Notes: generated by a model from the letters alone, not told the origin. Positions 1,555 to 59,588 are shown, counted from the first letter of the whole stretch. The stretch: 63,191 bases of DNA, filler included, from Coriobacteriales bacterium (GCA_031263105.1; 6 parts of 6 records of this genome joined end to end with filler, not necessarily neighbours in it); one strand, 5' to 3'. Numbers and translations are program-made.

Positions 1555-1716
1555 GTTACTGCTCACCCCCCACTGTCATTCCGAGCCCCGCCGAGGAATC
1601 TTTGGACACGCAGTGCCCAACGGCAGGTCGGGGGGCCCTTCGACCTGTGGTCGACCGCTGGCGCGGCCGAGGATCCCTCGACAGGCTCGGGATGACAGTG
1701 GGGGGTGAGCAGTAAC
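1555..1716. mobile_element. Complete MITE-like element (162 bp) with 8-bp TSD GAGGCATC
   Basis: Perfect TIR GTTACTGCTCACCCCCCACTGTCAT/ATGACAGTGGGGGGTGAGCAGTAAC; GAGGCATC at 1547-1554 and 1717-1724. Confidence 0.92.
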
Positions 1717-2502: not shown

Positions 2503-2662
2503 AACGCCTCATGGGGTCACAGAAACGCTGCGACTAGGCAAACAGTCCGGTGGACTGTTTGCGGGATTCGAATGGGTCAACAGTCCAGTGGACTGTTGAC
2601 AGGCGAAGCCGCGAAGCGGCGTATGAGCCTTTGGACGAGCGCTATGCGCGAACCCATGGAAC

Positions 2663-2684: not shown

Positions 2685-2829
2685 TAGCGGTGTAAGCTAT
2701 AAGGATGCTGAGATTCCTACTCACCTTTAGCTGCCAATACATCAGGAGGCTGCGGCTTCCGGTGATGAGAAGGAGTAGTCCAGAGCAACTCCTTTTCGCG
2801 TTTTCATGGCAATCACAGGCTCGGGTATC

Positions 2830-3546
2830 TCCCTGCTTGATGGTTCCCTTGGCGGCGCGGGTGATGCCGGTCGCGCTGCTCGCTGCCTGCCTGCCGGTTG
2901 CAGCGGTGACTTGTTTTGTGGTCGCAGCAGTGCGGGTTACCGTCTTCTGGGCAGCCTGTTTGGAAGCCCCTTGAGTGGTTTGCTGACGGGCAGTACCGCT
3001 GGCGTTTTGGGCAGATTCCACCCCCTGTTTAGCCTCCTTTGCCACATGGCGCACATCGCGGACTTTGCCTACAGCCTTGCTGGCTCCGTCTGTCGCTGCC
3101 CTTCGCACAACTCCGGTGCCGTCTCTCGCAGTCTGCTCAACCTTGCTTTGGGCATAGTCGTTACCGTTGCGGTACTGCGGCTCAGGCGGCTCGCTTCTCT
3201 CCGCAACGTCCTTGACCTTGGCGTGGGCATCGCGCACGGCGGCAAGCCCGGCCTGTCTCTTGTCCAATACCTTGATGTCCTTTACCACGTTACGGGTCGT
3301 TACTGTTCACACCCCACTGTCATCCCGTGCCTGTCGAGGGATCCTCGACCGCGCAAGCGGTCGACCGCAGGTCGAAGGGCCCTGCGACCTGCCGTTGGAC
3401 ACTGCGTGCTCCGTGGGCCTGTCGGCCCGTCCTCGCTGAAAACGCGGTGCGTTTTCCGGGCGCTCGGACCCAAGGATTCCTCGGCGGAGCTCGGAATGAC
3501 AGTGGGGGTGTGAACTGTAACTACGGGTCTTGATAGTCTTGCCCAT
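2830..3546 (-). pseudogene. 5' remnant of an ICE-type gene (resembles the N-terminus of conjugative cell-wall hydrolase proteins), split by a MITE
   Basis: Removing 3299-3521 plus one TSD gives MGKTIKTRNVVKDIKVLDK... with an AGGAG RBS; A/T/K/Q-rich region, then truncated. Family assignment is from memory. Confidence 0.6.
3299..3521. mobile_element. Complete MITE-like element with 8-bp TSD TACGGGTC and a nested ~60-bp repeat
   Basis: TIRs GTTACTGTTCAC/GTGAACTGTAAC; TACGGGTC at 3291-3298 and 3522-3529; extra insert at ~3412-3471. Confidence 0.92.
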
Positions 3547-3914
3547 AGGTACTCCTGTTCTGATTGGGATACGGCATTTGATGCATACTCACGAAGGCAA
3601 CCGTTGATGCTTGGAGACATAACTACCTTTTGAGCAGCCAGCCTTGGTTTCTGGACAATGTGAAGAGTTGGATGTTTTACAGCAACGACGACACGGACGA
3701 CCCCGACGAGTACGTCGCGGAGGATGTGAAGGGCTACTACCTCGACAAGCGCCAAGCCATAGCATGAGCATGAAGACCGTTGAGCGCAAGCAGGTATGAT
3801 GTGACCGACATCGGTCGCGAGTTCGATATGCTCAGCATCATGAGGGAGCAGTTCGCCGCTCAACAATCGCTGGACATCAGCGTCTCAGTTGACTTGGCGA
3901 CTGAGTAGCGGCCC

Positions 3915-8666: not shown

Positions 8667-9665
8667 ATGGAAGGATTTGTCAATTGGAGACTTTTGGAAT
8701 CCCTGTCTGGATGGAACAGTAGAAAAACCCAGGAAGAGATCGCATTCTGGGATGACTGGGCCCCGAATTGGGAGAAGCGCTGCGCTCTGGAGACGGCTTT
8801 CACGGACAAACAGGTGGCGGCACTCGATATCAGGGATGAGGATACGGTGCTTGACGCCTGTTGCGGCTCAGGGCGACTGACCATCCCCTTGGCAAAAATG
8901 GCCAAACGGGTCACCGCTCTGGATTCCAGCGAACAGATGCTGGAGCTTTGTAGGCTCAAAGCCGAAGGCGAAGGACTTCACAACATCGATTATCTGAAAG
9001 CGGACTGGCACGAGCTGACACCGGGACAAAACCTGTCGGCACATGATGTCACGGTGGCCTGCATATCCCCGGCATCCTCAGATATCATCAAGCTCAGCAA
9101 GTCGGCGACAAGGCGATGCCACTCCCTGTCCTTCAGCAAGCCCTACGCCTATTGCAACGTGTTGGCGGATCTGTTCTCGGGCGTGAACGCCGAGTGGGCC
9201 GACAGCGACGAGGCACTGAGGAAGTACCAGCTTGGGCCATTCGCAAGCCGTGGATTCGATCTCAATGTCTCATTTAATGTCCTGTATGACAGCGGGGTCA
9301 ATCCGTCGATAGGCTATGTTCGGGGCGGATGGGAATACGAGTCTGACACTTTTGACGGGTTGCTCGGGCATCTCTCTGGCCTTGGCACCATTGAGAGCGG
9401 GAGAGAGGCTCTCTTTGCTGAGAACGTGCGGCGACATACCGTCAGGCTTTCCAACGGCAAACTGCTCTTTCGAACATCCACCGAAATGTACGTGCTCAGC
9501 TGGAATCCGGCGGAACTGGATGGCGCTGCTTTGTTACAGTTCACGCCCCCACGGATACCCCACTGTCATCCCGGCCCCCACTGTCATCCCGGCCCCCACT
9601 GTCATCCCGGCCCCCACTGTCATCCCGGCCCCCACTGTCATCCCGGCCCCCACTGTCATCCCGAG
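8667..9665 (+). CDS. Class I SAM-dependent methyltransferase; 3' end reads into a MITE and the contig end
   Basis: VLDACCGSG motif; no stop codon before the element starts at 9533. Confidence 0.8.
9533..9665. mobile_element. MITE terminus with 6 x 18-bp tandem units (truncated by the contig end)
   Basis: GTTACAGTTCAC...ACGGATA cap, then CCCCACTGTCATCCCGGC repeats. Confidence 0.85.
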
Positions 9666-9765
9666 NNNNNNNNNNNNNNNNNNNNNNNNNNNNNNNNNNN
9701 NNNNNNNNNTTAATTAATTAANNNNNNNNNNNNNNNNNNNNNNNNNNNNNNNNNNNNNNNNNNNN
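9666..9765. other. Artificial contig linker
   Basis: N-run with a central TTAATTAATTAA. Confidence 0.97.
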
Positions 9766-9943
9766 GCGGTCGAGGATCCCTCGGCAGGCTCGGGATGACA
9801 GTGGGGCTCGGGATGACAGTGGGGGCTCGGGATGACAGCGGGGCTCGGGATGACAGTGGGGCTCGGGATGACAGTGGGGGCTCGGAATGGCAGTGGGGGC
9901 TCGGAATGACAGTGAGCTGTCCGTGGAGGGTGTGACCCGTAAC
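9766..9943. mobile_element. MITE half with 7 tandem 18-19-bp units
   Basis: GAGGATCCCTCGGCAGGCTCGGGATGACAGTG repeats ending GTGACCCGTAAC. Confidence 0.85.
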
Positions 9944-9949
9944 CCCGCA

Positions 9950-10963
9950 TCAACGCCCCTCTGTGCTGCCGGTCAGCCTGCGGTACTCGTGTTCGGTCAC
10001 GATGAGGCGGGTCGCGGCGGGCAGGACGCGGGCGGAGAACGGGGTCTTCCCGCCGGGGGCCTCGCCGTCGTACTGGAGGCTGAGGGGCGGCTCTGCGGTG
10101 ATGCGCGCGCATTTTGCCCGGAAGGTCTCGACGGCGTCGGCGCGGTGGGGGAAGCCCCCCGTCCGGTCGAGGAAGGCCGCGAAGAAGGCGGGCAGCAGCT
10201 CGACGGCGCTGTGGGGCTTCAGCACGGCTATCTCGAGCAGCCCGTCGCGGGCGTCGTTCGCGTGAGTGATGGATATGTCGGGGTATATCTTCGAGAAGTT
10301 GAGCACCAGCACGGCTATGCCGTCGAGCTCGACGGTCTGCCCGTCGAGCTCGATGGTGAAGTGGGCGACCGTGGGCGTGGGGTTGGTGAGGGCGGCGGCG
10401 AGGTAGGCGTTCGGCCCGAGCCTCTCCTTGAGTCGGTCCGCGTTCTCCATGATGGTCGCATCGTAGCCCGCGCCGCTTATCACGGCAAAGCCCTTCGTCA
10501 CGGTCCTTGCGCCCGCGCCCTTCGCGGCCGCGCCCCCCTCGTCCGTGTCATCCACGGTCGCGCTCCCCTCGGGCGTCTCCCCCTCGCCCGCACCCTCGAA
10601 GTCGATCTCGCCCAGGTCGAAGTCCAGGTACCGGCCCGACCTCGCCATCTCGGCCAGGGCATGGGGCTCCTCGGGCTGGTCGAGGTTCGTCACCATGAGG
10701 TTGCTGGTGCCGGCGGGGAAGGGCAGGATGGGGATGCCGGTGTTGCGCAGCGCGTAGCAGACGGACGCTATGGTGCCGTCGCCCCCGGCAGCGACCACGA
10801 GGTCGCAGTCTGCGGCACCGGCGAGCAGCGACTCGACGGGGGTGTGCCCGTCGGTGCTGCGGACGATCAGCTCGTCGCCGTCCTGCGCGAGCTTGCGCGC
10901 GAACTCGAAGATGGAGCCGTCGCGCAGGCCGGACTGCAGGTTGTTTACGATAAGCGCCTTCAT
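9950..10963 (-). CDS. Diacylglycerol/lipid kinase family protein
   Basis: IVNNLQSG, AAGGDGT, PAGTSN and QYDGE motifs; start MKALIV inferred. Confidence 0.88.
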   Translation of the reverse strand: MKALIVNNLQSGLRDGSIFEFARKLAQDGDELIVRSTDGHTPVESLLAGAADCDLVVAAGGDGTIASVCYALRNTGIPILPFPAGTSNLMVTNLDQPEEPHALAEMARSGRYLDFDLGEIDFEGAGEGETPEGSATVDDTDEGGAAAKGAGARTVTKGFAVISGAGYDATIMENADRLKERLGPNAYLAAALTNPTPTVAHFTIELDGQTVELDGIAVLVLNFSKIYPDISITHANDARDGLLEIAVLKPHSAVELLPAFFAAFLDRTGGFPHRADAVETFRAKCARITAEPPLSLQYDGEAPGGKTPFSARVLPAATRLIVTEHEYRRLTGSTEGR

Positions 10964-11153
10964 CGAGGCGGCACCCGACCTTTCCATCGGCCTTTCCGTC
11001 GATTCCTCCGCCGTCCCGCCGCTCGCTCGCGCCGTCGCCTGCACAGCCCCTTGTGAGGTCGGCCCGTGGGAGGGATAATGGTACCATGATACCTTACGAG
11101 GGTGCCGTGGCGCATTCTGTGGGCATGAGGTGTTGGGCGTATGCTGCCAGGAC

Positions 11154-11435
11154 GTTACTGTTCACACCCCCACTGTCATTCCGAGCTTGCCGAGGAATCT
11201 TTGGACACGCAGTGTCCAACGGCAGGTCAGGGGGCCCTTCGACCTGCGGCCGACCGCTGGCGCGGTCGAGGATTCCTCGACGGGCTCGGAATGACAGTGG
11301 GGCTCGGAATGACAGTGGGGCCCGGAATGACAGTGGGGCCCGGAATGACAGTGGGGCCCGGAATGACAGTGGGGCCCGGAATGACAGTGGGGCTCCGAAT
11401 GACAGTGGGGTATCCGTGGGGGTGTGAACAGTAAC
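11154..11435. mobile_element. Complete MITE-like element with 8-bp TSD GCCAGGAC and 7 x 18-bp tandem units
   Basis: TIRs GTTACTGTTCACACCCCCAC; GCCAGGAC at 11146-11153 and 11436-11443. Confidence 0.92.
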
Positions 11436-11505
11436 GCCAGGACGTATGTCGCATGCTGCCGCAGTGTGCGCCGCCCTCCTCCCTATGAGACGAAGGAAGC
11501 CGACA

Positions 11506-12690
11506 GTGCAGGTTCCGATACGGTATATCGACACACAGCAGGGCCTTGAGGAGTTCGCCGCCGAGCTCTGCGGCACGCCGCTCCTGACGCTCGACACCGA
11601 GTTTTTGCGGGAGAAGACCTACTACCCCCAGCTCTGCCTCGTCCAGGTCGCCGCCGACGGGCGCGAGGCCCTCATCGACCCGCTCGCCCCTCTCGACCTG
11701 AGGGCGCTCGTCCCCGTCCTCACGGATCCGCGCACCGTCAAGGTGTTCCATGCGGGCGACCAGGACTGCGCCATACTCTACCAGGCGCTCGGTGCCGTCG
11801 TCCGCCCCGTCTTCGACACCCAGCGGGCGGCGCTGCTCCTCGGCCTGCCCCAGCAGGCGAGCCTCGTCGCCCTCGTGAGGCGCTTTTGCGGCGTGAGCCT
11901 CAAGAAGGGGGAGTCCTTCTCCGACTGGGCCCAGCGTCCCCTGACCGAGACCCAGCTCTCCTACGCGATCGACGACGTGCGCTACCTTCCCCTTGCCTAC
12001 ACGAGGATCGTCTCCGAGCTGCAGGAGAAGGGCCGCCTTCCCTGGCTCGAGGACGAGTTCAGGGATATGGAGGACGAGGAGCGGTACCGTGTCGATGCCC
12101 GGGAGGTATGGCAGAGGCTCAAGGGGGTCGCGGCGCTCAGGGGCAGCCAGCTCGCCACCGTCCGCGAGGTCGCTGCATGGCGGGAGCAGGCGGCCCAGGA
12201 GCGCAACCTCCCGCGCAAGTGGGTGCTCCCCGACGACCTCCTGGTCGAGGTCGCCCGGCGCGAGCCGGCCTCGCCCGAGGATCTGTACCGGGTCCGGGGC
12301 ATCAAGGAGCGGCTGGGGAAGCGCTGGTCGCAGGAGGTGCTGGCCGCCGTGGAGAGGGCACAGGGGCTTTCTCCCGACCAGTGGCCGACCCCGAGGCGTG
12401 TGCCTGCGAGGGACGCGCGGTGCGTCGCCAGCCTCGACCTCATGGGCGCCCTGCTCCATCAGAGGGCCAAGGAGCTGCACATCGCGACCTCCTTCCTCGC
12501 GGGCCACGACGACCTGGCGCGCCTTGCCGAAGGCCAGCGGGAGGGCCTGACGATCCTGAAGGGGTGGCGGCGCGACCTTTTGGGCAACGAGCTGCTCCGT
12601 CTGCTCGAAGGGGGCATATCGCTGTCGCTTGACGATGGTGACCTGAAGGTTACGCTCCTGTCACAAGCGGGTGTTCCCGCCCCCTCCTAG
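11506..12690 (+). CDS. rnd: Ribonuclease D
   Basis: LDTEFLREKTYYPQLCLVQ, DWAQRPL and YAIDDV motifs, HRDC region; start GTG inferred. Confidence 0.93.
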   Translation: MQVPIRYIDTQQGLEEFAAELCGTPLLTLDTEFLREKTYYPQLCLVQVAADGREALIDPLAPLDLRALVPVLTDPRTVKVFHAGDQDCAILYQALGAVVRPVFDTQRAALLLGLPQQASLVALVRRFCGVSLKKGESFSDWAQRPLTETQLSYAIDDVRYLPLAYTRIVSELQEKGRLPWLEDEFRDMEDEERYRVDAREVWQRLKGVAALRGSQLATVREVAAWREQAAQERNLPRKWVLPDDLLVEVARREPASPEDLYRVRGIKERLGKRWSQEVLAAVERAQGLSPDQWPTPRRVPARDARCVASLDLMGALLHQRAKELHIATSFLAGHDDLARLAEGQREGLTILKGWRRDLLGNELLRLLEGGISLSLDDGDLKVTLLSQAGVPAPS

Positions 12691-12834
12691 GTCGCTTTTC
12701 CTCTACTATGGGGAAGGAACGCCCTTCGGGAGAGGATGCCTTCGAGGAAAGGATGTCTTCGAGGAGGGCCTTTTGGGGACGTCTTCCTCACAGGGAGGCG
12801 TCGCCTTGCTCGTCCGATACGATGGGAGCCTGCC

Positions 12835-13509
12835 GTGCCGTTTGATATGTCGTACCTCATGCTGATACTCGTCACCCTCGTCCTGGGCTTCGGGACGCAG
12901 GCCTATATCAAGCACACCTACCGCAAATGGGGCAAGGTGCCGATCTCCCTGGGGCTGACCGGCGCGCAGGCGGCCCGCAGGATGCTCGACGCGAACGGCC
13001 TCTCCCATGTCGCCATAGAGCGGGTCGGCGGCGAGCTGACGGACCACTTCGACCCCCGCACGAACGTCGTCGCGCTGTCCGAGGCCGTCTATGGGGGCAC
13101 GAGCGTCTCGGCGTCTGCCATCGCCTGCCACGAGTGCGGGCATGCGGTCCAGCATGCGCGCGGCTACGTCCCGGCAAAGCTGCGCGGCGCCCTGGTGCCG
13201 CCGGTCAACCTTGCAAGCAACCTCTGGATGTTCGTCCTGATCGCCGGCATCTTCCTGCAGATGGTCGGCATGATATACCTGGCCGTCATCCTGTATGCCG
13301 CCGTCATAGTCTTCCAGCTGGTCACCCTGCCGGTCGAGTTCGACGCCTCGCGCCGTGCGCTCGCCTACCTCAACGGCCACGGCTTCCTTCCCAGCGCAGA
13401 GACAGGGGGCGCACGCGCGGTCCTCACCTCGGCAGCGCTGACCTACGTCGCGGCCGCGCTCGTCTCGGTGCTCCAGCTCGTCTACCTGCTCGGCTTCACA
13501 CGCCGCTGA
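12835..13509 (+). CDS. Putative neutral zinc metallopeptidase (YugP-like)
   Basis: LTDHFDP, HECGHAVQ and TLPVEFDASRRA motifs. Confidence 0.9.
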   Translation: MPFDMSYLMLILVTLVLGFGTQAYIKHTYRKWGKVPISLGLTGAQAARRMLDANGLSHVAIERVGGELTDHFDPRTNVVALSEAVYGGTSVSASAIACHECGHAVQHARGYVPAKLRGALVPPVNLASNLWMFVLIAGIFLQMVGMIYLAVILYAAVIVFQLVTLPVEFDASRRALAYLNGHGFLPSAETGGARAVLTSAALTYVAAALVSVLQLVYLLGFTRR

Positions 13510-13527
13510 CCGGCCTCGGAACCGCCG

Positions 13528-14844
13528 ATGGCACAGCCCCTCTCCGTCTCCCAGGCGCTTGCACGCGCAAAGGAATCGCTCGAGCAGATTCACCTGACGC
13601 TCGTCGGGGAGGTCTCGGAGCTCTCGGACAGGCCCGGCTACAAGGCCGTCTACTTCACGCTGACCGACCGGAGCGCGGCGCTCCCGTGCCTCATGTGGCG
13701 CAACAGCTACAAGGGCTGCGGCGTCGAGCTCAGGAAGGGCATGCTCGTCGAGGCCTCCGGCAGCTTCTCGCTCTATGCGGCGAAGGGGCGCATGAACTTC
13801 GACGTGAGGGCTCTGCGCCCGGCAGGGGAGGGGAGCCTTCGGATCGCGGTCGCCCAGCTGGCGGAGAGGCTGCGGGCCGAGGGGCTCATGGACCCCCAGA
13901 GGAAGCGCGTCCTGCCCCGGTACCCCACGAGGCTCGCGTTGGTGACCTCGCCGCGCGGCAAGGCCGTCCATGACGTGCTGAGGACCCTGCGGCGGCGCTA
14001 CCCGCTCGTCGAGGTGCTGGTCGCAGGCGTCGCCGTCGAGGGCGCGGGGGCCGTCGAGCAGATCGCCCGGGGCCTTGCCGCCGCAGCCGAGTCGGATGCG
14101 GAGCTGATCCTCCTCGTCCGTGGCGGGGGCTCCTACGAGGACCTCATGCCCTTCAACGACGAGAGGCTTGCACGTGCGGTGGCCGCCTCGCCCGTCCCCG
14201 TCGTCACCGGCATCGGCCACGAGCCGGACAACAGCATCGCCGACATGGTCGCCGACTTCCGCGCCTCGACCCCCACGGCCGCCGCCGAACATGCCGTCCC
14301 GGACATCGCCGAGCTCGGAGTCGCCCTCGCCCGGACGACCGCCTCCTTCGCGCGCTCGCTCGGCTTGGCGCTCCAGCGCGCCGAGGCCGCCTACGGGAAC
14401 CTGCGCCGCCGCCCCCTGTTCGCGGACCCCTTCTTCTTGGTGCGCCCCTTCATGATGCAGGCGGAAGGGGCGTCTGCGCGCCTCGTGCAGTCGCTCCCCC
14501 TGAGGCTTCGGCAGGACGCGCAGCCCGTGCGCGCCACGGCGGCGCACCTGGCCCTGCTCGGCTCGAACCTGCTCGCGCCCCACCGGGCCGCGCTCGCGCT
14601 CGACGCGGCCCGGCTCGAGGACCTCTCGCCTCCCGCCGTGCTTGCCAGGGGCTATTCCCTCGCCTATGACCGGGAAGGCCGTATCATCGGCAGCGTGGAT
14701 ACGGTAGACTGGGGCCAGCGCTTCGACCTGCGCCTTGCCGACGGCACCCTCGGCTGCACGGTCGAGGGGAAGCGCCGCGAGGCCCTGCCTTGCACGGATC
14801 CGCCTTGCATGGACATCGAGGACAGAGAGGGGCATCATGCCTGA
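13528..14844 (+). CDS. xseA: Exodeoxyribonuclease VII large subunit
   Basis: RGGGSYEDL, GIGHEPD, STPTAAAE and LARGYS motifs. Confidence 0.95.
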   Translation: MAQPLSVSQALARAKESLEQIHLTLVGEVSELSDRPGYKAVYFTLTDRSAALPCLMWRNSYKGCGVELRKGMLVEASGSFSLYAAKGRMNFDVRALRPAGEGSLRIAVAQLAERLRAEGLMDPQRKRVLPRYPTRLALVTSPRGKAVHDVLRTLRRRYPLVEVLVAGVAVEGAGAVEQIARGLAAAAESDAELILLVRGGGSYEDLMPFNDERLARAVAASPVPVVTGIGHEPDNSIADMVADFRASTPTAAAEHAVPDIAELGVALARTTASFARSLGLALQRAEAAYGNLRRRPLFADPFFLVRPFMMQAEGASARLVQSLPLRLRQDAQPVRATAAHLALLGSNLLAPHRAALALDAARLEDLSPPAVLARGYSLAYDREGRIIGSVDTVDWGQRFDLRLADGTLGCTVEGKRREALPCTDPPCMDIEDREGHHA

Positions 14845-15091
14845 GAGCACCGAACGTACCGACCCTGCGGACCTCAGCTTCCGGGAGGCGTCCGAGGAGC
14901 TCGAGGGCATCGTGCGCGTCCTCGAGGGCAGCCAGCTCGAGCTGGAGGAGAGCCTGGAGTCCTACGAGCGGGGCGTCACCTTGCTGCGGGCGCTCCAGGT
15001 GCGCCTGGCCGAGGCCCAGCAGAAGGTGACCGTGCTGCTCGGCGAGCTCGACGCAGACAGCGACGACAGCATAGACGGGACCCTGAGCTAG
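14837..15091 (+). CDS. xseB: Exodeoxyribonuclease VII small subunit
   Basis: FREASEELEGIVRVLE...LEESLESYERG; follows xseA. Confidence 0.92.
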   Translation: MPESTERTDPADLSFREASEELEGIVRVLEGSQLELEESLESYERGVTLLRALQVRLAEAQQKVTVLLGELDADSDDSIDGTLS

Positions 15092-15136
15092 GGAGACGAT
15101 GGTCGGCCATCGTCACGCAAAAGGAGGAGGAACACC

Positions 15137-15484
15137 ATGTCAGATTGCCTGTTCTGCAGGATAGCCGCCCACGAGATCCCGGCGGACATCGTCTATGAGG
15201 ACGACGAGGTCGTCGCCTTCGAGGACGTGAACCCCCAGTTGCCCGTGCACACGCTCATCATCCCCAAGAAGCACTACGCCCATGTCGGCGACGGCGTGCC
15301 GGAGGAGACCTTGGGCAGAGTCTTCAAGACGGTGGAGAAGGTCGCCGCCCTCAAGGGGCTTGAGGAGAGCGGCTATCGTATCGTCGCCAACACCGGGGAG
15401 GACGGCAGGCAGACCGTCCATCATCTCCATGTGCACGTCCTGGGAGGGGCGCGCATGCCCATCCGCATGGGGCCGGCGGACTGA
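15137..15484 (+). CDS. Histidine triad (HIT) nucleotide-binding protein
   Basis: DCLFCRI and HLHVHVLGG motifs. Confidence 0.93.
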   Translation: MSDCLFCRIAAHEIPADIVYEDDEVVAFEDVNPQLPVHTLIIPKKHYAHVGDGVPEETLGRVFKTVEKVAALKGLEESGYRIVANTGEDGRQTVHHLHVHVLGGARMPIRMGPAD

Positions 15485-15676
15485 GGGCCTCCGCGCTGCG
15501 CCGCCCGCTGCACGCACGCACTGCACGCCGCTCGCAGGCGCCGCACGCACGCCCGCCGCACGCCCGCGCCGTCCGCCGCACGCACGCCCGGTTTCCCGGG
15601 TCCCGGCATCCGCCCGCCGCCAAGGGCCACGAGGAACCTCACGGCACAGAGAACACCACAAGGAAACGAGGTCGTC

Positions 15677-16870
15677 ATGTACGTTCTGGTGATAAACGCA
15701 GGGTCGTCGTCGCTCAAGTACCAGTTGCTCGACAAGGACACGCAGCGGCTCGTCGGCAAGGGCCTCTGTGAGAAGGTCGGCTCCGAGGACTCCTTCCACA
15801 GGCACGGGCTCGACGGCGACGAGAGGCTCGACACCCTCCCCCTGAAGGACCACCACGATGCGGTGCAGGCGGCCCTTCGGGCGCTGCTCGACCCCCAGGG
15901 CGGCGCCGTCAAAGGCATCGAGGAGATAGCTGCGGTCGGCCATCGCGTCGTCCACGGCGGCGAGCACTTCAGCGCCTCGTCCGTCATCGACGACGAGGTC
16001 GTGGCACGGATCAGGGAGTGCATACCCTTGGCGCCGCTCCATAACCCGCCCGCGCTCACCGGCATCGAGGCGTGCGCGGACCTCATGCCCCACGCCCTGC
16101 AGGTGGCGGTGTTCGACACCGCCTTCCATCAGACCCTGCCCCCCAAGGCGTACCTCTACCCGCTCCCTTACGAGCTGTACGAACGGCACCGTGTCCGCAC
16201 CTACGGCTTCCACGGGACCTCGCACCGCTACGTCGCCCAGCGCGCGGCGGCCCTCCTTGGGCGCCCCCTCGACGAGCTGCGGCTCATAACCTGTCACCTC
16301 GGCAACGGCTGCTCCGTCACGGCCGTGCGAAACGGCGTGTCGGTGGACACCTCGATGGGCTTCACCCCGCTCGAAGGCCTCATGATGGGGACGCGCTGCG
16401 GCTCCATAGACCCTGCCGTCGTCACCTATCTGATAGGCTCGCTCGGCATGGGCGCCGGGCAGGTCGACGACCTGATGAACCGCCGCTCGGGGCTTTTGGG
16501 CGTCTCCGGCGTCTCGAACGACCTGCGCGACGTCCAGGCGGCTGCCGATGCGGGAGACGAGCGTGCGCAGCTTGCCTGCGAGATGTATGCCGACTCGGTG
16601 AGGAGGCACATAGGCCAGTACGTGTTCGAGCTGGCAGGCGTCGATGCCGTCGTCCTGACGGCGGGCGTCGGGGAGAACAGCGACCGCATACGGCAGATGA
16701 TCTTCTCGGGTCTGGAGCCCCTCGGCTTCCTGCTCGACGGGGAGAGGAACCGGCTGCGCGGCTTCGAGCGTGTCATCTCCTCCGAGGGCTCCCCTGTGCG
16801 CATCCTCGTCGTCCCCACGAACGAGGAGCTGATGATCGCCCAGGATGTCGCCTCCCTGCTCGACGCCTGA
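15677..16870 (+). CDS. ackA: Acetate kinase
   Basis: NAGSSSLK, GHRVVHGG, APLHNP and PTNEELMIA motifs. Confidence 0.96.
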   Translation: MYVLVINAGSSSLKYQLLDKDTQRLVGKGLCEKVGSEDSFHRHGLDGDERLDTLPLKDHHDAVQAALRALLDPQGGAVKGIEEIAAVGHRVVHGGEHFSASSVIDDEVVARIRECIPLAPLHNPPALTGIEACADLMPHALQVAVFDTAFHQTLPPKAYLYPLPYELYERHRVRTYGFHGTSHRYVAQRAAALLGRPLDELRLITCHLGNGCSVTAVRNGVSVDTSMGFTPLEGLMMGTRCGSIDPAVVTYLIGSLGMGAGQVDDLMNRRSGLLGVSGVSNDLRDVQAAADAGDERAQLACEMYADSVRRHIGQYVFELAGVDAVVLTAGVGENSDRIRQMIFSGLEPLGFLLDGERNRLRGFERVISSEGSPVRILVVPTNEELMIAQDVASLLDA

Positions 16871-17039
16871 CACCCGTCCCCCCGCGTTGCGCCTCGTCCT
16901 TCCCGGCGGCGGGCGACCCTAGGCGCCAGCGGTCGGCCCGATTTGTTCTGCAACCTGCGTTGCGCCTCGTCCTTCCCGGCGGTGGGCTACCCCCCCCCCC
17001 CCCCCCCCCCTCCGGTCCGCCCCCAGCTCCCTAAAAGAC

Positions 17040-17074
17040 GCATGGGCCCCCTTTGTGGACAAGGGGGCCCATGC
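17040..17074. terminator. Strong stem-loop downstream of ackA
   Basis: GCATGGGCCCCCTT...AAGGGGGCCCATGC inverted repeat; no clear U-tract. Confidence 0.5.
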
Positions 17075-17180
17075 TGCGTCAGAGGCAGGTCACAAGGAGT
17101 AGGATGATCTGCATATCACACTATATGATAGTCTAGGATTAAAGTCAACTAAGAATAAAAAACTCGACACCGGGGCATCG

Positions 17181-17280
17181 NNNNNNNNNNNNNNNNNNNN
17201 NNNNNNNNNNNNNNNNNNNNNNNNTTAATTAATTAANNNNNNNNNNNNNNNNNNNNNNNNNNNNNNNNNNNNNNNNNNNN
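17181..17280. other. Artificial contig linker
   Basis: N-run with TTAATTAATTAA. Confidence 0.97.
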
Positions 17281-17501
17281 CCCACCCCCCGCACCCAACC
17301 CCCCCCAACACCCCCCCCCCCCCCCCCCCCCCCTGCCGCACGGCAGCGCGCGCCGTGCGCCCGGGGCCCGAGGCATTGGAGAGGGAACGGTACCGCAACG
17401 AGACGATAACGGGGACCCCCAGCGGTTGACAGGAATGCTAATACCGTTAGGCTTTTATACCGTTGGTTATGCCGTCAGCAAGCCTTACGGGAAGGATTGC
17501 C

Positions 17502-17957
17502 ATGCCCACCGACCGTTCCACCGATTATCCCTCAGTCGCAGTCGGGCGCTTCAAGGAGATACTCGGCCGCTACCAGATGAGGGTCTTCGACCGCCTCGCA
17601 CGCTACTCGTCCGGCGAGTCCCTGCTGCTGCGGACGCTTGTGCTGCACGACGGCCCCCTCCATCCCACAGAGCTGCGACAACGGACCTGCACCAGTTCCG
17701 CGAGGGTCGCCTCCGTCCTGAAGAGCCTTGAGGGAAAGGGACTCGTCATGCGCGAGGCGGACGGGCGGGACAGGCGGAGGGTGCAGGTCACGGTGACGCC
17801 CGAGGGCCGCGCCCGCGCCCAGCAGGAGATCGACGAGATGGACGAAGAGGCCCAAGGAGTGTTCGAGAAGATGGGCAAAAGGGATACCGAGGAGTTCATC
17901 CGTCTTCTGGACCGGATGCTGGAGGTATTCGTGAGCCAAGGGACAGGGAGCAGATAG
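17502..17957 (+). CDS. MarR-family regulator
   Basis: LEGKGLVMRE...DRRRVQVTVTPEG winged-helix motif. Confidence 0.88.
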   Translation: MPTDRSTDYPSVAVGRFKEILGRYQMRVFDRLARYSSGESLLLRTLVLHDGPLHPTELRQRTCTSSARVASVLKSLEGKGLVMREADGRDRRRVQVTVTPEGRARAQQEIDEMDEEAQGVFEKMGKRDTEEFIRLLDRMLEVFVSQGTGSR

Positions 17958-20900
17958 ATGACGAAATTCAGCGTCCGCAAGCCCATGACCGTGCTGGTCG
18001 CGGTCGTGATGGTGTTCGCCTTGGGCCTTGCGAGCTTCAGGGGGATGACCCCCGAGCTCCTCCCGAACATCGAGCTGCCCTACGTCATCACCATGACGAC
18101 CTATCCGGGGGCCTCGCCCGAGAAGGTCGAGGAGGAGGTGACCCGGCCGCTCGAAGAGGGCTTCGCCACGCTGGAGGGCCTGGACAGCATCCAGTCGCAG
18201 TCGTCCGAGAACGTCTCGTTGCTCATCATGGAGTTCACGGACAGCGCCGACCTCGACGCGGTCTCCCTGGAGATCGTCCAGAAGGTCAACCAGATAGAGG
18301 GCGGATGGGACGACATGGTCTCGACGCCGGTGATCCTGAAGATGAACCCCGACATGCTGCCCGTCATGATAGCGGCCGTCGAGCAGGAGGGCTTCGACAC
18401 GACGGAGGTCTCCCGCCTCATGGAGGAGTCCCTGCAGACCAAGCTCGAAGGCATAGAGGGGGTCGCGAGCTTGGACGTGACGGGCCTGCGCGCCGAACGG
18501 GTGAACGTCGTCCTGAAGCAGGAGAAGATCGGCGAGCTCAACGCCCGCGTAGGCGATGCGATCAAGGGGAGCTTCGTCGAGAAGGAGCAGGAGCTCCGCG
18601 ACACGCAGACGGACCTCGAGGGCAAGCTCGACGAGGTGAAGGCGCAGACCGCCGAGCTCGATGCGGGGGCCAAGGAGTTCGCCGTCAAGATGGGGGAGGG
18701 CTCCACGGAGCTCGCCTCCTCGTGGGCCGCCCTGTTCGGCGGCCTGCAGGACCAGAAGACCATGCTCGCCGACCTGAAGGAGCAGCTCCAGACCCTGACA
18801 ACGGAGGAGGAGGCCGCCCGTGCCGCCGCGCCCGGCGGCGCCCTCCCAGAGCCTGTGGAGAAGCAGTTCAAGGACGCGAAGGACCAGATGGGCGCGGGGA
18901 TCACGAAGCTCGAGGACGGCATCGAGTCCGTGCAGGAGATGCAGGGCACCTTGTCGGACGCCCAGGGGACGCTCAACGAGACCATGTCCACCACGCTCTT
19001 CGGACTCTCGAACGCCGCCGCCCAGCTGGCAGGCGCCCAGTCCCAGCTGAGCGTCGCGCTCACCCAGATAGAGCAGGGGCTCACCCAGCTCGACACCGCC
19101 CGTGACTCCGCCGTCGAACAGGCGGACATGGGAGGCGCGCTCACCATGGACACGGTGCTGGGCATACTGAAGGCGCAGAACTTCTCGATGCCCGCCGGCT
19201 ATGTCCAGGAAGGCAGCGACGACTACCTCGTCCAGGTGGGCGACGAGATCGCCTCCCTCGAGGAGATGCAGCAGCTCGTGCTGCTCGACCCCGGGATCGA
19301 GGGGATCGAGCCGATCCGCCTCTCGGAGGTCGCCGACCTGTTCATGAGCGACAACCTGAACGACCTCTACGCGAAGATAAACGGGCACGACGGCATACTC
19401 CTGTCCTTCAACAAGCAGAGCGAGTATGCGACGACCGAGGTCGCCGACAACATACTCCAGAAGTTCGACGAGCTTTCCGACAGCAACCCCGGCCTGCACT
19501 TCACCCCCCTGCTCAACCAGGGCGACTATATCTACATGGTGATAAACGGCATCACCAGCGACCTGCTCTGGGGGGCGCTCTTCGCCGTCGTCATACTCCT
19601 GCTGTTCCTGCGCGACCTGCGGCCGACCTTCGTCACGCTGTGCGCCATCCCCATAAGCGTCGTCTTCGCGCTCGTGGCGATGTACTTCTCGGGGGTGACC
19701 ATCAACATCATCTCGCTCTCCGGCCTGGCCATAGCCGTCGGCCGCCTCGTGGACGACAGCGTCGTCGTGATAGAGAACATCTTCCGCCTGCGCTCGAAGG
19801 GCTACTCGCCCGTCAAGGCGGCCGTGAACGGCGCGGGGCAGGTGGCCGGCGCCATCATCGCCTCGACCCTGACCACCATCTGCGTGTTCCTCCCCATCGT
19901 GTTCGTGCAGGGCCTGACGCGGCAGCTGTTCACGGACTTCGCGCTGACCTTCGCCTATGCGCTGCTCGCCAGCCTGCTCGTGGCCCTCACGCTCGTGCCG
20001 ACGATGGCAAGCGGCCTGTTCAGGAAGATGGAGCCGAAGGAGCATCGCCTGCTCGACCGCGCGATAGCCCTGTATGACCGTGCCCTGGTGTGGACCCTGC
20101 GCTTCAAGCCGGTCGTCCTGGTGTTCGCGGCCGTGCTCCTGGCCGCAAGCGTCGCCGTCGTCTGGTCCCGGGGCTTCGCCTACATGCCCGACGGGAACTC
20201 CGGCCAGATAGCCATCAACCTGACGATTCCCAAGGAGGTCCCGGACGAACAGAAGCGCGAGGTGGCCGACGATGCCGCCGCGCGCGTCGCGGCGGTCGAC
20301 GGGGTCGAGACCGTCGGGGCCATGGCGGGCGGCAGCGGCATCGTCGGCGTGGGGGCGCTCTCCGGCATGGGCGGCGGGTCGGGCCAAGGCTCGGCGCTGG
20401 GATCCGTCACCATCTACGCCCTGCTCGACCAAGGCAAGGACATGGACCGGCTGAGCGACGAGATCGAGGCGGGCCTCGAAGGGGTCGGCGCGGAGTACGA
20501 GGTGGGGTCCGCCAGCATGATGGACGCCTCCGCCCTCGGCGGCAGCGGCGTCACGGTGAACCTCTACGGCGACTCGCTCGAGGACATGGTGCGTGCCTCG
20601 GAGGCCGTGCGCGCACAGACGGAGGGCCTGGCGGGAATCGCCGAGTTCGAGGGCGGCGCCGAGGAGGCGACCCCGGTCCTGCACTACACGGTCGACCGAG
20701 AGGCCGCCGCCAAGCACGGCCTGACGACCGCACAGGTCTACCAGCAGGTCAGCTCTGCGCTCTCCAAGGAGAAGAACGCGACGGACGTGCTCTGGGGGAC
20801 GGAAGGCTACGACGTCGTCGTCATGAACGGGGACGCTGCGGACGACCGCCTGACGCCCTCCTACCTTGAGGCCCTGGAGTTCAACGTCACCAAACGCGAC

Positions 20901-21668
20901 GGGAGCACCGAAAAGGTCAGGCTTGCCGACGTGGCAACGGTCACGGAGAGCAAGACCCTGCAATCCATCCAGCGCTCCGAGCAGCGCCGCATGCTGCCGG
21001 TCAACCTCACGATAACGCCCGACGCCAACATCACCCTCGTGACCCAGGAGGTCGAGCGCAGCCTCGTGGACCTGGAGCTGCCCGAGGGCGTGACCTACGA
21101 GGTCACAGGCGAGAACACGACCATCATGGACTCGTTCAGGGAACTGGGCATCATGCTCGTGCTGGGCCTTCTGCTGGTCTACCTCATCATGGTGGCGCAG
21201 TTCCAGTCGCTGAAGAGCCCCTTCATCATCATGTTCACCGTGCCCTTGGCGTTCACAGGGGGCTTCCTTGCCCTGCTCGTCACCGACAAGGTGCTCTCGG
21301 TCATCTCCCTCATCGGCTTCGCCATGCTCATCGGCGTCATCGTGAGCAATGCCATCGTGCTGGTAGACTACATAAACCGCCTGCGCCACGAAGGGATGGA
21401 GCGGGTCGCCGCCATACGCGAGGGGGCGGCCGTCCGCATGCGCCCCATCCTCATGACGGCGCTGACCACGATATTCGCCCTGCTGATGATGGCCTTGGGG
21501 ATAGGGAGCGGCTCGGAGATGATGCAGCCCCTCGCCATCGTCTGCATAGGAGGCCTCGCCTACGGCACGCTGATGACCCTGTTCGTCATCCCCGTCATCT
21601 ACGACCTCCTCAACAAGAAGGACCTCCGCACCATCGACGAGGACGACCTCGCCACCGTGACGGACTAG
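17958..21668 (+). CDS. RND (AcrB/SwrC-like) efflux transporter
   Basis: GASPEKVEEEVTRPLE, GRLVDDSVVVIENI and RMRPILMT motifs. Confidence 0.93.
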   Translation: MTKFSVRKPMTVLVAVVMVFALGLASFRGMTPELLPNIELPYVITMTTYPGASPEKVEEEVTRPLEEGFATLEGLDSIQSQSSENVSLLIMEFTDSADLDAVSLEIVQKVNQIEGGWDDMVSTPVILKMNPDMLPVMIAAVEQEGFDTTEVSRLMEESLQTKLEGIEGVASLDVTGLRAERVNVVLKQEKIGELNARVGDAIKGSFVEKEQELRDTQTDLEGKLDEVKAQTAELDAGAKEFAVKMGEGSTELASSWAALFGGLQDQKTMLADLKEQLQTLTTEEEAARAAAPGGALPEPVEKQFKDAKDQMGAGITKLEDGIESVQEMQGTLSDAQGTLNETMSTTLFGLSNAAAQLAGAQSQLSVALTQIEQGLTQLDTARDSAVEQADMGGALTMDTVLGILKAQNFSMPAGYVQEGSDDYLVQVGDEIASLEEMQQLVLLDPGIEGIEPIRLSEVADLFMSDNLNDLYAKINGHDGILLSFNKQSEYATTEVADNILQKFDELSDSNPGLHFTPLLNQGDYIYMVINGITSDLLWGALFAVVILLLFLRDLRPTFVTLCAIPISVVFALVAMYFSGVTINIISLSGLAIAVGRLVDDSVVVIENIFRLRSKGYSPVKAAVNGAGQVAGAIIASTLTTICVFLPIVFVQGLTRQLFTDFALTFAYALLASLLVALTLVPTMASGLFRKMEPKEHRLLDRAIALYDRALVWTLRFKPVVLVFAAVLLAASVAVVWSRGFAYMPDGNSGQIAINLTIPKEVPDEQKREVADDAAARVAAVDGVETVGAMAGGSGIVGVGALSGMGGGSGQGSALGSVTIYALLDQGKDMDRLSDEIEAGLEGVGAEYEVGSASMMDASALGGSGVTVNLYGDSLEDMVRASEAVRAQTEGLAGIAEFEGGAEEATPVLHYTVDREAAAKHGLTTAQVYQQVSSALSKEKNATDVLWGTEGYDVVVMNGDAADDRLTPSYLEALEFNVTKRDGSTEKVRLADVATVTESKTLQSIQRSEQRRMLPVNLTITPDANITLVTQEVERSLVDLELPEGVTYEVTGENTTIMDSFRELGIMLVLGLLLVYLIMVAQFQSLKSPFIIMFTVPLAFTGGFLALLVTDKVLSVISLIGFAMLIGVIVSNAIVLVDYINRLRHEGMERVAAIREGAAVRMRPILMTALTTIFALLMMALGIGSGSEMMQPLAIVCIGGLAYGTLMTLFVIPVIYDLLNKKDLRTIDEDDLATVTD

Positions 21669-21680
21669 GGGCGTGGGCGG

Positions 21681-21811
21681 GTTACTGTTCACACCCCCGC
21701 TGCCACCCCGGGCCCCCGCTGCCACCCCGGGCCCCCGCTGTCATTCCGAGCTCCGCCGAGGATTCTTTGGACACGCTGTGTCCAACGGCAGGCCAGGGGA
21801 CCTCTCGACCT
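21681..21811. mobile_element. MITE half with degenerate tandem units (contig end)
   Basis: GTTACTGTTCACACCCCC terminus plus core TGTCATTCCGAG...GGACACGCTGTGTCC. Confidence 0.85.
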
Positions 21812-21911
21812 NNNNNNNNNNNNNNNNNNNNNNNNNNNNNNNNNNNNNNNNNNNNTTAATTAATTAANNNNNNNNNNNNNNNNNNNNNNNNNNNNNNNNN
21901 NNNNNNNNNNN
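21812..21911. other. Artificial contig linker
   Basis: N-run with TTAATTAATTAA. Confidence 0.97.
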
Positions 21912-39962: not shown

Positions 39963-40057
39963 GAGGCGGCTCCGTTTTCGCGTTCACGTTCATTCACGTT
40001 CATTCAACAGACTACGCTACCTGCACATCTTTAGCAAGTATTGCGAGTCTCCTGTGG

Positions 40058-40163
40058 AGACCTCGCGGCCGAAGAGCACCCACTGGTGGTTGACAGGGCC
40101 CCACATCGTTCGCGGGTAGAGGGCGAGCAGGTCGCGCTCCGTCTTGTCCGGCGTGTCCGAGGA
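40058..40163 (-). repeat. 106-bp duplicate of an internal 3' segment of nth
   Basis: Matches 41218-41323 with one mismatch. Confidence 0.9.
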
Positions 40164-40177
40164 CGCAGGGGTGGGTG

Positions 40178-41149: not shown

Positions 41150-41806
41150 TCAGGCACGGGCGCTGGGGCAGAGGTCGCTCAGGGGGCACTCGGCGCAGCG
41201 CGGGCGGCGGGCGATGCAGACCTCGCGGCCGAAGAGCACCCACTGGTGGTTGACGGGGCCCCACATCGTTCGCGGGTAGAGGGCGAGCAGGTCGCGCTCC
41301 GTCTTGTCCGGCGTGTCCGAGGAGGCGGGCGAGAAGCGCAGCTTGTGCGCGATGCGGAAGACGTGCGTGTCGACCGCAATGCCCTCCACGATGCCGAAGG
41401 CGTTGTTGAGCACGATGTTGGCTGTCTTGCGGCCGACCCCCGGAAGGCGCCTGAGCTCCTCCATTGTGCGCGGCACCTCGCCGCCGAAGTCCGCGAGCAG
41501 CATCTGTGCGCAGGCGACGCAGTTCCTCGCCTTGACGTGGTAGAAGCCGATCGTGCGGATGACGCCCTCGACGTCCGGGACATGCGCCTGGGCCATGGCC
41601 TGCGGGTCCGGCCAGCGGGAGAACAGCTCGGGGGTCACCTTGTTGACGGCGGCGTCCGTCGTCTGCGCCGAGAGCAGCACGGCGACGGTGAGCGTGAAGG
41701 GGTCGTGGAAGAGGAGCGCGCACTCCGCCTCCGGGTAGCGCTCGTCCATGCGCCGCGCCACCTCCAGCGCCCGCGCCTGCCTTCCTGCCTTCGATTCCCG
41801 TGCCAT
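41150..41806 (-). CDS. nth: Endonuclease III
   Basis: LSAQTTD, LPGVGRKTAN, VDTHV and CIARRPRCAECPLSDLC motifs. Confidence 0.95.
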   Translation of the reverse strand: MARESKAGRQARALEVARRMDERYPEAECALLFHDPFTLTVAVLLSAQTTDAAVNKVTPELFSRWPDPQAMAQAHVPDVEGVIRTIGFYHVKARNCVACAQMLLADFGGEVPRTMEELRRLPGVGRKTANIVLNNAFGIVEGIAVDTHVFRIAHKLRFSPASSDTPDKTERDLLALYPRTMWGPVNHQWVLFGREVCIARRPRCAECPLSDLCPSARA

Positions 41807-46319: not shown

Positions 46320-46419
46320 NNNNNNNNNNNNNNNNNNNNNNNNNNNNNNNNNNNNNNNNNNNNTTAATTAATTAANNNNNNNNNNNNNNNNNNNNNNNNN
46401 NNNNNNNNNNNNNNNNNNN
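46320..46419. other. Artificial contig linker
   Basis: N-run with TTAATTAATTAA. Confidence 0.97.
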
Positions 46420-46480: not shown

Positions 46481-46554
46481 CGTCGGCCGCCGCCCCACCC
46501 CCCCCCCCCCCGGGGCCCCCCCGCCCCCCCCCGCCCCCCCCCCGCCCCCCCCCG

Positions 46555-46602
<48 letters not shown>

Positions 46603-46722
46603 CAGCGGGGGCAGCGGGCGCTACGCCTACCTCCAGGCCACGGGCTTCGTGGACGACCCCCTCGTCGACTGCGCCTTCCGCTCCCACAGGCCCTGAGCGG
46701 CGCGGGAGCGGCAGCGGGAGCG

Positions 46723-48073: not shown

Positions 48074-48243
48074 GTTACCGTTCACACCCACTGTCATTCC
48101 GAGTCCCGCCGAGGAATCCTCGGCTGCGAAGCAGCCGACCGCAGGTCGGGGCATCTTCCGGCCGTAGTTGGCCGCTTCGCGACCAAGGATTCCTCGGCTC
48201 CGCTGCGCTCCGCTCGGAATGACAGTGGGGTGTGAATGGTAAA
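48074..48243. mobile_element. Divergent MITE-like copy with a degenerate 8-bp TSD
   Basis: GTTACCGTTCAC...GTGAATGGTAAA; flanks GTTCCATA/GCTCCCTA match at 6 of 8; different core. Confidence 0.8.
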
Positions 48244-52950: not shown

Positions 52951-53175
52951 CCCCGCAGCCCCACTGCCATCCCGAGCGGAGGCCCCGCAGCCCCCGCAGC
53001 CCCGCAGCCCCCGCAGCGCCCGCAGCGCCCGCAGCGCCCGCAGCCCCGCAGCGCCCGCAGCGCCCGCAGCCCCGCAGCGCCCGCAGCCCCGCAGCGCCCG
53101 CAGCCCCCGCAGCGCCCGCAGCCCCGCCGCGCCCGCAGCCCCCGCAGCCCCGCAGCGCCCGCAGCCCCGCAGCCC
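52951..53175. repeat. Degenerate MITE core followed by an 8-9-bp CGCAGC(C/G)C tandem array
   Basis: CCCCACTGCCATCCCGAGC, then repeats running to the contig end. Confidence 0.7.
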
Positions 53176-53275
53176 NNNNNNNNNNNNNNNNNNNNNNNNN
53201 NNNNNNNNNNNNNNNNNNNTTAATTAATTAANNNNNNNNNNNNNNNNNNNNNNNNNNNNNNNNNNNNNNNNNNNN
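53176..53275. other. Artificial contig linker
   Basis: N-run with TTAATTAATTAA. Confidence 0.97.
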
Positions 53276-53413
53276 CCGGGGCGGCAGCGGGGCCCGGGGC
53301 GGCAGCGGGGCCCGGGGCGGCAGCGGGGCCCGGGGCGGCAGCGGGGCCCGGGGCGGCAGCGGGGCCCGGAATGGCAGTGGGGGTCGGGGTGGCAGTGGGG
53401 TGTGAACGGTAAC
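53276..53413. mobile_element. MITE terminus with about 7 GC-shifted 18-bp units
   Basis: CCGGGGCGGCAGCGGGGC repeats ending GTGAACGGTAAC. Confidence 0.8.
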
Positions 53414-55752: not shown

Positions 55753-56181
55753 GTCGCCGGTCACTCCCCACTGTCATTCCGAGCGCAGCGAAGATCCTTC
55801 GCTGCGCTCAGGATAAACTCCGCCGAGGAATCTTCGGGTCCGAGCGCCCGGAAAACGCACCGCGTTTTCAGCGAGGACGGCGCGACAGTCCAGTGGACTG
55901 GGAAACAGCCCAGTGGGCTGTTTCCGGGCGAAGCTGCGTTGGGAAACAGCGCGGTGCGCTGTTTCCGGGCGAAGCTGCGGAGCAGCGGGTGAGCCCCTGA
56001 GCGTATGAGCCCCTGAGCGGATGAGCCCATGGAACCGACAGGCCCACGGGACGCAGTAGGTTGAGGAGTCCTTCGACCTGCGGTCGACCGCTGACGCGGT
56101 CGAGGATTCCTCGGCAGGCTCGGAATGACAGTGGGGACCCGGGATGACACGGTGGTGTCTGTAGAGGGTATGGGCAGTAAC
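55753..56181. mobile_element. Composite MITE copy with nested repeats
   Basis: Degenerate termini and core interrupted by at least three other palindromic modules. Confidence 0.8.
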
Positions 56182-59512: not shown

Positions 59513-59588
59513 GTCCCCATCGTCTAGCGGTCAGGACACCGCCCTTTCAAGGCGGAGATCGCGGGTTCGAATCCCGCTGGGGATGCCA
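59513..59588 (+). tRNA. tRNA-Glu(TTC)
   Basis: Acceptor stem GTCCCCA/TGGGGAT, anticodon arm CCGCC-CTTTCAA-GGCGG, TTCGAAT, CCA. Confidence 0.95.

Follow-up and report, generated by a model that had tools for sequence, protein, structure and literature searches.

A short, non-coding repeat recurs along the 63,191-nucleotide stretch of DNA analysed here (the window), and its complete copy at 1555-1716 raises the question of what this repeat is and by what kind of transposase it has been moved. The results described below suggest, with a probability that we put at roughly 85%, that it is a non-autonomous MITE with ISBst12-like IS66 termini, moved in trans by an IS66-family DDE transposase and spread in one lineage.

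The window is composed of six contigs of a fragmented Coriobacteriales MAG (G000; 2,905,931 bases in 250 contigs, 64.5% G+C, 86% completeness, 6.5% contamination) that are joined by five N44-TTAATTAATTAA-N44 spacers. These joins are artificial, so that gene neighbourhood across the spacers is meaningless and the copies found at the joins are separate truncated elements; the repeat density of the window is inflated as well, because short contigs end in the repeat. All runs that hold the window stretch are labelled termite gut metagenome. The features of the window are as follows.

1-76: right-end piece at a contig start, with a poly-C run before it (cut by the contig end)
1547-1554 and 1717-1724: left and right copies of the 8-bp target duplication GAGGCATC of copy 1555-1716
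1555-1585, + strand: left terminal repeat, consisting of the 14-nt IS66-type terminus, a C run and the ACTGTCATTCCGAG motif; its inverted partner lies at 1686-1716
1555-1716: complete MITE copy of 162 nt, with end-profile E values of 4e-10 and 1e-9 at the two termini
2426-2499 and 59513-59585: tRNA genes (Rfam RF00005), the second 84 nt past the MITE copy ending at 59429
3299-3521: complete MITE copy of 223 nt, with target duplication TACGGGTC at 3291-3298 and 3522-3529
9533-9665: left end and six 18-nt units, cut by the contig end
9557-9665, 9789-9898, 11285-11411 and 59207-59405: arrays of 18-nt units
9666-9765, 17181-17280, 21812-21911, 46320-46419 and 53176-53275: spacers (artificial joins)
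9766-9943: right end and unit array at a contig start (cut piece)
11154-11435: complete MITE copy of 282 nt, with target duplication GCCAGGAC and seven tandem 18-nt units in the right arm (11285-11411)
21681-21811: left end, cut by the contig end
21912-21999: right end at a contig start (cut piece)
48074-48243: complete MITE copy; right terminus decayed, target duplication matching at 6/8
52938 (approximate start)-53175: decayed contig-ending piece, with one motif unit followed by 8-9-nt CCCCGCAG-type arrays
53276-53413: right end at a contig start, its units decayed (cut piece)
55753-56150: degenerate MITE copy whose termini are decayed and whose core is longer and different
59057-59429: complete MITE copy of 373 nt, with unit arrays in the right arm and a tRNA gene after it (59513-59585)
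60271-60415: degenerate, truncated copy, its left terminus decayed and its right terminus missing
62956-63097: degenerate MITE copy with decayed termini (GTCAC...GGGAC), flanked by an inverted repeat and not by a direct duplication

The list thus comprises five complete copies, three degenerate ones and seven pieces cut by contig ends. A reading of the window from the sequence alone (the sequence-only reading) had counted about 14-15 copies, three of them with different exact 8-bp target duplications and one with a 6/8 flank match, in a window free of transposases, and this description holds throughout. All 15 positions that it gave carry a match to the end or end unit of the family profile, and GTGANCNGTAAC with at most one mismatch is found 17 times in the window, compared with 1.56 expected matches and a maximum of 6 in 100 shuffles. 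The exact duplications GAGGCATC, TACGGGTC and GCCAGGAC are all present, the 6/8 match (GTTCCATA versus GCTCCCTA) belongs to copy 48074-48243, and a Pfam search of the 39 non-nested ORFs of at least 200 aa yielded no transposase family at E<=1e-5. Rfam searches at gathering thresholds matched two tRNAs in the window and nothing on the MITE repeat. The genes on either side of copy 1555-1716, which diverge from it, encode by Pfam assignment a CNNM/CorC transporter (- strand) and a TorD-like chaperone (+ strand). The inverted repeat around copy 62956-63097 consists of the 12-nt sequences TGTTGTGCGGGA and TCCCGCACAACA (62944-63109), and the piece ending at 53175 is largely taken up by arrays of 8-9-nt CCCCGCAG/CGCCCGCAG units (52973-53175) which adjoin the decayed motif unit and run to the contig end.

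To place these copies in the genome, a family census of G000 was carried out with an nhmmer profile of the 31-nt end, the reversed genome serving as the control. The profile produced 1286 matches at E<=1 as opposed to a single match in the reversed genome; the terminus is included in 518 of these (261 left, 257 right), the remaining 768 being internal units or decayed ends, and the matches are spread over 215 of the 250 contigs. Similarly, a 15-nt end pattern occurs 215 times in G000 and its back-to-front control not once. Nearest left-right pairing of the termini defined 133 complete copies of 109-542 nt (median 177 nt, mode 160-169 nt), most typically of about 160-180 nt and reaching 542 nt where units are reiterated. 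Copies of this size are too short to encode a transposase, and the frames that cross them run in from the flanking sequence. Of the 500 contig ends, 183 have a repeat within 200 nt, compared with 8.7% of G000 as a whole that is this close to one; the repeat is a main cause of the fragmentation of this MAG, and hence the MITE explains its poor assembly.

The census provides direct evidence of how the copies arose. Among the 126 scorable complete copies, the 8-bp target duplication is exact in 52 and matches at 7 of 8 positions in a further 21, whereas in the shifted control, with the left 8-mer taken 8 nt further out, none of the 126 reaches 6 matches; the flanks of the other 53 copies match at 6 of 8 positions or fewer. 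All 52 exact duplications are different, and apart from G or C at position 8 (44 of 52) they show no clear target-site consensus. An empty site, represented by one case from assembled contigs, was found in a related strain for copy 3299-3521: a 3744-nt contig from run X2 (same study, different sample) joins position 3290 directly to 3522, matching 2829-3290 with 73 differing letters and 3522-3622 with 5, with nothing between. The 231 bases that it skips correspond to the 223-nt copy plus one 8-bp duplication, the 8 letters fitting both sides of the joint. Two of the checks proposed along with the sequence-only reading, namely a genome-wide enrichment of target duplications and an empty site in a relative, thus had a positive outcome, and its designation of the family as a MITE with DDE-type ends and 8-bp duplications is borne out by the census. 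The 52 different exact duplications and the empty site show that the copies originated by insertion. After in-silico excision, an open frame of at least 600 nt crosses 50 of 114 sites compared with 896 of 1000 random positions, which indicates that the copies are mostly intergenic. Copies of the main type (type A) are 81-97% alike; given that the median is only about 89%, the spread of the MITE was not very recent.

Alignment of 25 main-type copies revealed a constant order within each arm: a terminus of 14-17 nt (GTTAC-nnnn-CACAC-CCC), a C run and then the subterminal motif CACTGTCAT-YCCGAG, with which a hairpin begins; next come a short stem that GAGGRATC closes and, further inward, an 8-bp hairpin (TTGGACAC-GCA-GTGTCCAA on one side of the element, TCGACCGC-TGGC-GCGGTCGA on the opposite side). 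Each arm is the inverted counterpart of its partner, and the two meet in a central stem, the consensus halves being identical at 63 of 84 positions as an inverted repeat; one strand by itself can thus fold up as a long rod. In copy 1555-1716 the terminal stem spans 33 bp, and terminal inverted repeats are also visible across the 25-copy alignment. The minimum-energy DNA fold of this copy reaches -64 kcal/mol (z = -10.2) and the RNA fold of one strand has z = -12.1, with none of 200 shuffles as stable in either case. Both hairpins that had been pointed out from the sequence, GGACAC-GCA-GTG(T/C)CC and TCGACC-TG(T/C)-GGTCGA, are recovered in the DNA fold, the latter (TCGACC-TGY-GGTCGA) as an alternative pairing. 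When the 25 copies were inspected by eye, some of the hairpin variants proved to be compensated (T-A to C-G) and others not. The four variable bases of the terminus set apart subfamilies (TGTT, ACGT, AGTT, TGCT and others), and the same variant is found at both ends of 36 of 60 copies, compared with 11.2 expected and a maximum of 20 in 2000 shuffles, which fits descent from different master copies.

This architecture bears on the proposal that a REP-like element had been captured between IS66-like ends, for which we found no support. The TGTCATYCCGAG...GAGGRATC hairpin is present, inverted, in both arms of an inverted repeat of about 80 nt and, the halves being so similar, it is part of an extended terminal repeat rather than a central cargo. 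A free-living source family is absent from the genomes searched as well: of the exact 15-nt motif, G000 has 860 occurrences and the 300 other genomes of the class that were searched have none; the MITE family is confined to one lineage. A sister MITE family in G009, which represents another genus of the same taxonomic family (loci L002-L005), also speaks against capture. Its members, 130-150 nt long and with about 15 ends in the genome, share the terminus and carry a GTCATCC.GAG-type stem at the same place, their core being different; of the four copies fetched, two have exact 8-bp duplications and one a 7/8 match. In the REP/RAYT system, a Y1 transposase gene is flanked by repeats in inverted orientation, and the short palindromes are not known to have inverted termini or a duplication. 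The MITE possesses both, and none of the four Y1 matches in G000 is a gene flanked by inverted repeats in this manner.

An 18-nt unit, CCCCACTGTCATCCCGAG, is reiterated head to tail in either arm. Among the 1286 profile matches, 437 are found in runs of 2-9 units with a spacing of 16-21 nt. The core of the unit, ACTGT-CAT, is similar to the terminus ACTGTTCAC, and at some ends (e.g., C78, C47 and C247) the terminus itself is reiterated. Multiplication of the unit, in tandem up to 9 times, would be accounted for most simply by replication slippage, and the units may serve as extra transposase-binding sites. A different kind of array is present in contig C3 of G000, where a 60-nt hairpin module is repeated four times, every unit starting with the CACTGTCATCCCGAG motif; this array is part of the MITE repeat system. 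Pairs of hairpin repeats of the type AAACAG-YCC-R-GTGG-R-CTGTTT were also observed in the window (2536-2613 and 55899-55979), and this module is found inside some of the longer MITE variants, too.

The affinity of the termini can be traced through relatives of G000 and through metagenomes. Within G000 itself, PF03050 produced no match to an IS66-family transposase and tblastn with the G020 protein described below gave a best E value of 0.39; given a MAG that is 86% complete and consists of 250 contigs, a repeated IS may simply be unassembled. The profiles of three other DDE families that generate 8-bp duplications, ISL3, IS256 and IS1595, had 0 matches in G000. Of the 40 relatives compared, only G009 contains the 15-nt end pattern in any number (15 matches), the others having 0-2 matches; in G020, a MAG of the same family, the two matches are inverted relative to each other and delimit the following element.

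G020:C41:3703-6004: autonomous element of 2302 bp with GTTACAGGTCACACC at both ends, inverted; the flanks are 7/8 alike

The one sense ORF of at least 80 aa in this element encodes a 575-aa protein which matches NF033517 (IS66 family transposase) with 183.4 bits, the cut-off being 180, and PF03050 (DDE_Tnp_IS66) with 71.8 bits; no ORF of at least 80 aa lies upstream of it inside the element. A transposase of this type is present in 1 of 34 genomes of the family, and a search of genome contigs for related loci returned the G020 record alone. Relatives of the protein nevertheless number 121 at E<=1e-10, mainly on 2-4-kb contigs, and 80 metagenomic loci encoding such relatives were used as a test set, with the reversed end pattern as the control. 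An end within 3 substitutions of GTTACTGTTCACAC was detected at 53 of the 80 loci and an inverted pair of ends 1.8-3.3 kb apart at 24, whereas the reversed pattern was found at 12 loci and never as a pair; at no more than 2 substitutions, the corresponding numbers are 26 loci and 12 pairs versus 1 and 0. Among the 19 scorable IS pairs, 6 have exact 8-bp duplications, two of which apparently represent one insertion, and 13 lack an exact one. At locus L016 both ends read GTTACTGTTCACACCCC, which matches the MITE consensus exactly over 17 nt. In the G020 element and the metagenomic loci, the sequence shared with the MITE ends after 15-19 nt, and the subterminal motif of the MITE, ACTGTCATYCCGAG, is in none of the IS elements seen.

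These comparisons support the assignment of the MITE ends to the IS66 family, and specifically to its single-gene, ISBst12-like kind, by way of relatives rather than through G000. The IS66 inference of the sequence-only reading, with its pointer to the ISBst12 group, is accordingly strengthened; an IS with matching ends, which it had proposed to look for, does exist in relatives and metagenomes, although none was found in G000. Mobilisation in trans likewise gains support as an interpretation from the finding that neither the window nor the assembled genome yielded such a transposase. The published account of ISDge4 from Deinococcus geothermalis (PMC12898284), whose authors place the element in the ISBst12 group, gives its ends as GTAACTGCTCAGCA and GTGACTACTCAGCA, with an 8-bp repeat, and describes a single transposase gene and transposition in laboratory culture. 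The MITE resembles the ISBst12 group, with its single-transposase members such as ISBst12 and ISDge4, in having a GT(T/A)AC-TG-TCA-type terminus and an 8-bp duplication. The autonomous ISBst12-like relatives that we found encode, as in G020, one transposase ORF with a DDE_Tnp_IS66 domain and no ORF of at least 80 aa upstream inside the element. The MITE differs from the group in being non-coding and 160-540 nt rather than 1.6-2.6 kb long; furthermore, the ISBst12-like relatives examined are without its subterminal motif and hairpins, and no partner was found in G000.

Several candidates for such a partner within G000 were inspected and rejected. C191:7115-8525 (1411 nt) consists of two MITEs around a low-GC gene; the 850-bp low-GC stretch between the two copies contains a 235-aa membrane-protein-like frame with a HELIHG motif. 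The first of these copies has a duplication of its own, CCTGTTCC, so that the two inserted independently and do not amount to a proven composite. C101:731-3163 (2433 nt) combines a chance end in a leucine-rich-repeat gene with one MITE, and the odd ends at C72:792 and C109:14340 have no transposase of the IS66 kind beside them. At the end of contig C109 (16800-17473) we observed the C-terminal part of a transposase that by eye is IS4/IS1634-like and is unrelated to the MITE ends.

A second class of transposase does occur in G000 in association with the MITE. Of the four Y1_Tnp matches in the genome, two are IS200-like genes, 58% alike and with end hairpins of their own, each located inside a MITE copy; around the two larger Y1 genes there are no MITE ends. 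The IS200-like elements lie outside the window, at the following positions.

G000:C197:3541-4343 and G000:C168:12380-13300: IS200-like elements, inserted exactly between CACTGTCAT and TCCGAG

In one of the MITE copies that bear an IS200-like element, the motif of the opposite arm holds a 78-nt mini-derivative whose left end begins identically, also at CACTGTCAT|TCCGAG. The MITE motif therefore looks like a preferred target of an IS200-like single-strand element, to judge from these junctions. The IS200-type left end has three copies in all of G000, so that 3 of 1112 motif copies are occupied, and we dropped the idea that the MITE cores were built from IS200-type mini-insertions because that left end follows so few of them. 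In other Coriobacteriia, the left ends and flanks that accompany relatives of the IS200-like transposase are of another sequence, so that these relatives are uninformative with regard to the motif. The nested elements at one fixed motif position constitute a small, testable case for the study of target choice by a single-strand transposase.

Do these Y1 elements, rather than an IS66-type transposase, account for the MITE itself? One could regard the repeat as a REP- or PATE-type element, the substrate of a tyrosine transposase (Y1, HUH) that works on hairpins in single-stranded DNA, and its GTTAC ends as incidental. The four Y1_Tnp matches, the abundance of hairpins in the MITE and the positioning of two IS200-like elements and the 78-nt mini-derivative exactly in the conserved motif would all be in keeping with this explanation. 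To our knowledge, however, Y1 elements have neither target duplications nor terminal inverted repeats, whereas 7 or 8 of the 8 flank bases match in 73 of 126 copies (none in the control) and the empty site retains one copy of the 8 bp; moreover, the left end follows only 3 of 1112 motif copies, the hairpins of the IS200-like elements are unlike those of the MITE, and the two larger Y1 genes lack flanking MITE ends. A Y1 origin of the entire element is already largely refuted by its 8-bp duplications together with the empty site, and we consider it barely credible. A further candidate is a transposase from one of the other DDE families that generate 8-bp duplications (ISL3, IS256, IS1595, IS6 and others), in which case the likeness to IS66 ends would be coincidental or convergent. 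The failure of PF03050 and tblastn to find an IS66 transposase in G000 speaks for such a family, as does the fact that the MITE and IS66-family ends have only 15-19 nt in common. We nevertheless regard it as very unlikely, given that the terminus recurs on IS66-family loci (53 of 80, with 24 pairs, versus 12 and 0 for the reversed pattern), that it is present at both ends of the G020 element and that the ISL3, IS256 and IS1595 profiles match nothing in G000.

A third explanation would treat the repeats as palindromes selected by the host for structural or regulatory roles (terminators, mRNA stabilisers, nucleoid sites), immobile at present and numerous because of selection. The chiefly intergenic location of the copies, their very stable single-strand fold (z = -10 for DNA, -12 for RNA), their age, as implied by a similarity of about 89%, and the lack of a detected IS66 transposase in G000 are compatible with this idea, but the 52 different exact duplications and the empty site demonstrate an origin by insertion, and an intergenic bias is expected for any transposon under purifying selection against genic insertions. 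As an account of the family it appears highly improbable; being about present use and not about origin, it is at the same time compatible with the MITE explanation. Under the preferred reading, a non-autonomous MITE with IS66-type termini, an IS66-family DDE transposase supplied in trans would bind both termini, and insertion at an 8-bp staggered cut would generate the 8-bp duplication without a strong target consensus. In this manner the element would have spread to at least about 260 copies, chiefly intergenic, within one termite-gut Coriobacteriales lineage.

The MITE might, in addition, be tied to two transposition systems. Besides movement of the whole element by an IS66-type DDE transposase, CACTGTCAT|YCCGAG on the hairpin-forming strand could be a dedicated landing site for IS200-type (Y1/HUH) elements, and the 18-nt units could be terminus-like binding sites selected for better mobilisation. 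We view this combination with considerable doubt. If it were true, the swarm of MITEs would offer a second mobile element many copies of its target and would also be a case of a MITE that optimises its own ends.

With respect to known systems, the family can be compared with the BOX elements of pneumococci (boxA-boxB(n)-boxC) and the Correia elements of Neisseria, which are foldback bacterial MITEs with modular bodies. Like these, it is small and non-coding, with inverted ends, a long single-strand hairpin and variable numbers of an internal unit, and is found in hundreds of intergenic copies, whereas the ends, the duplication length and the presumed transposase are different; furthermore, the reiterated unit of the present MITE is subterminal, terminus-like and located in either arm. 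REP/BIME and PATE elements, which depend on Y1 enzymes (RAYT, IS200/IS605), are likewise short, extragenic and hairpin-rich, and here a Y1-type element inserts at CACTGTCAT|TCCGAG. We know of no REP or PATE element with terminal inverted repeats or a target duplication, both of which the MITE has. Our literature search found no description of a MITE derived from IS66 or ISBst12 elements, the ISfinder and TnCentral catalogues being outside the comparison. Collectively, these results establish a real, dense and lineage-restricted MITE family with ISBst12-type IS66 ends, which is a new example of an already known sort of selfish DNA. What distinguishes it is its copy number and density, its subterminal arrays of terminus-like units and the targeting of a single position within the motif by IS200-like elements. 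The family provides a well-documented bacterial case of the little-described MITEs with IS66-family (ISBst12-type) ends. Because the mechanism of the IS66 family is poorly known, the many copies also offer a natural system for the end requirements of an IS66-type transposase. The restriction of the motif to one lineage (860 occurrences versus 0 in 300 genomes) makes it usable as a strain marker.

Some further observations concern the window as a whole. Long poly-C or C-rich runs are present at contig ends beside repeat pieces (1-47, 17290-17335 and 46490-46605) and have the appearance of artefacts from sequencing or assembly, or of arrays that were collapsed. The region 9887-21725 contains five large frames (389, 426, 734, 577 and 1397 aa) without a Pfam match at E<=1e-5, some of which may be spurious in this high-GC DNA. 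Finally, a 115-nt direct repeat unrelated to the MITE is located at 40055-40169 and 41215-41329, its two copies being 97% alike and 1160 nt apart.
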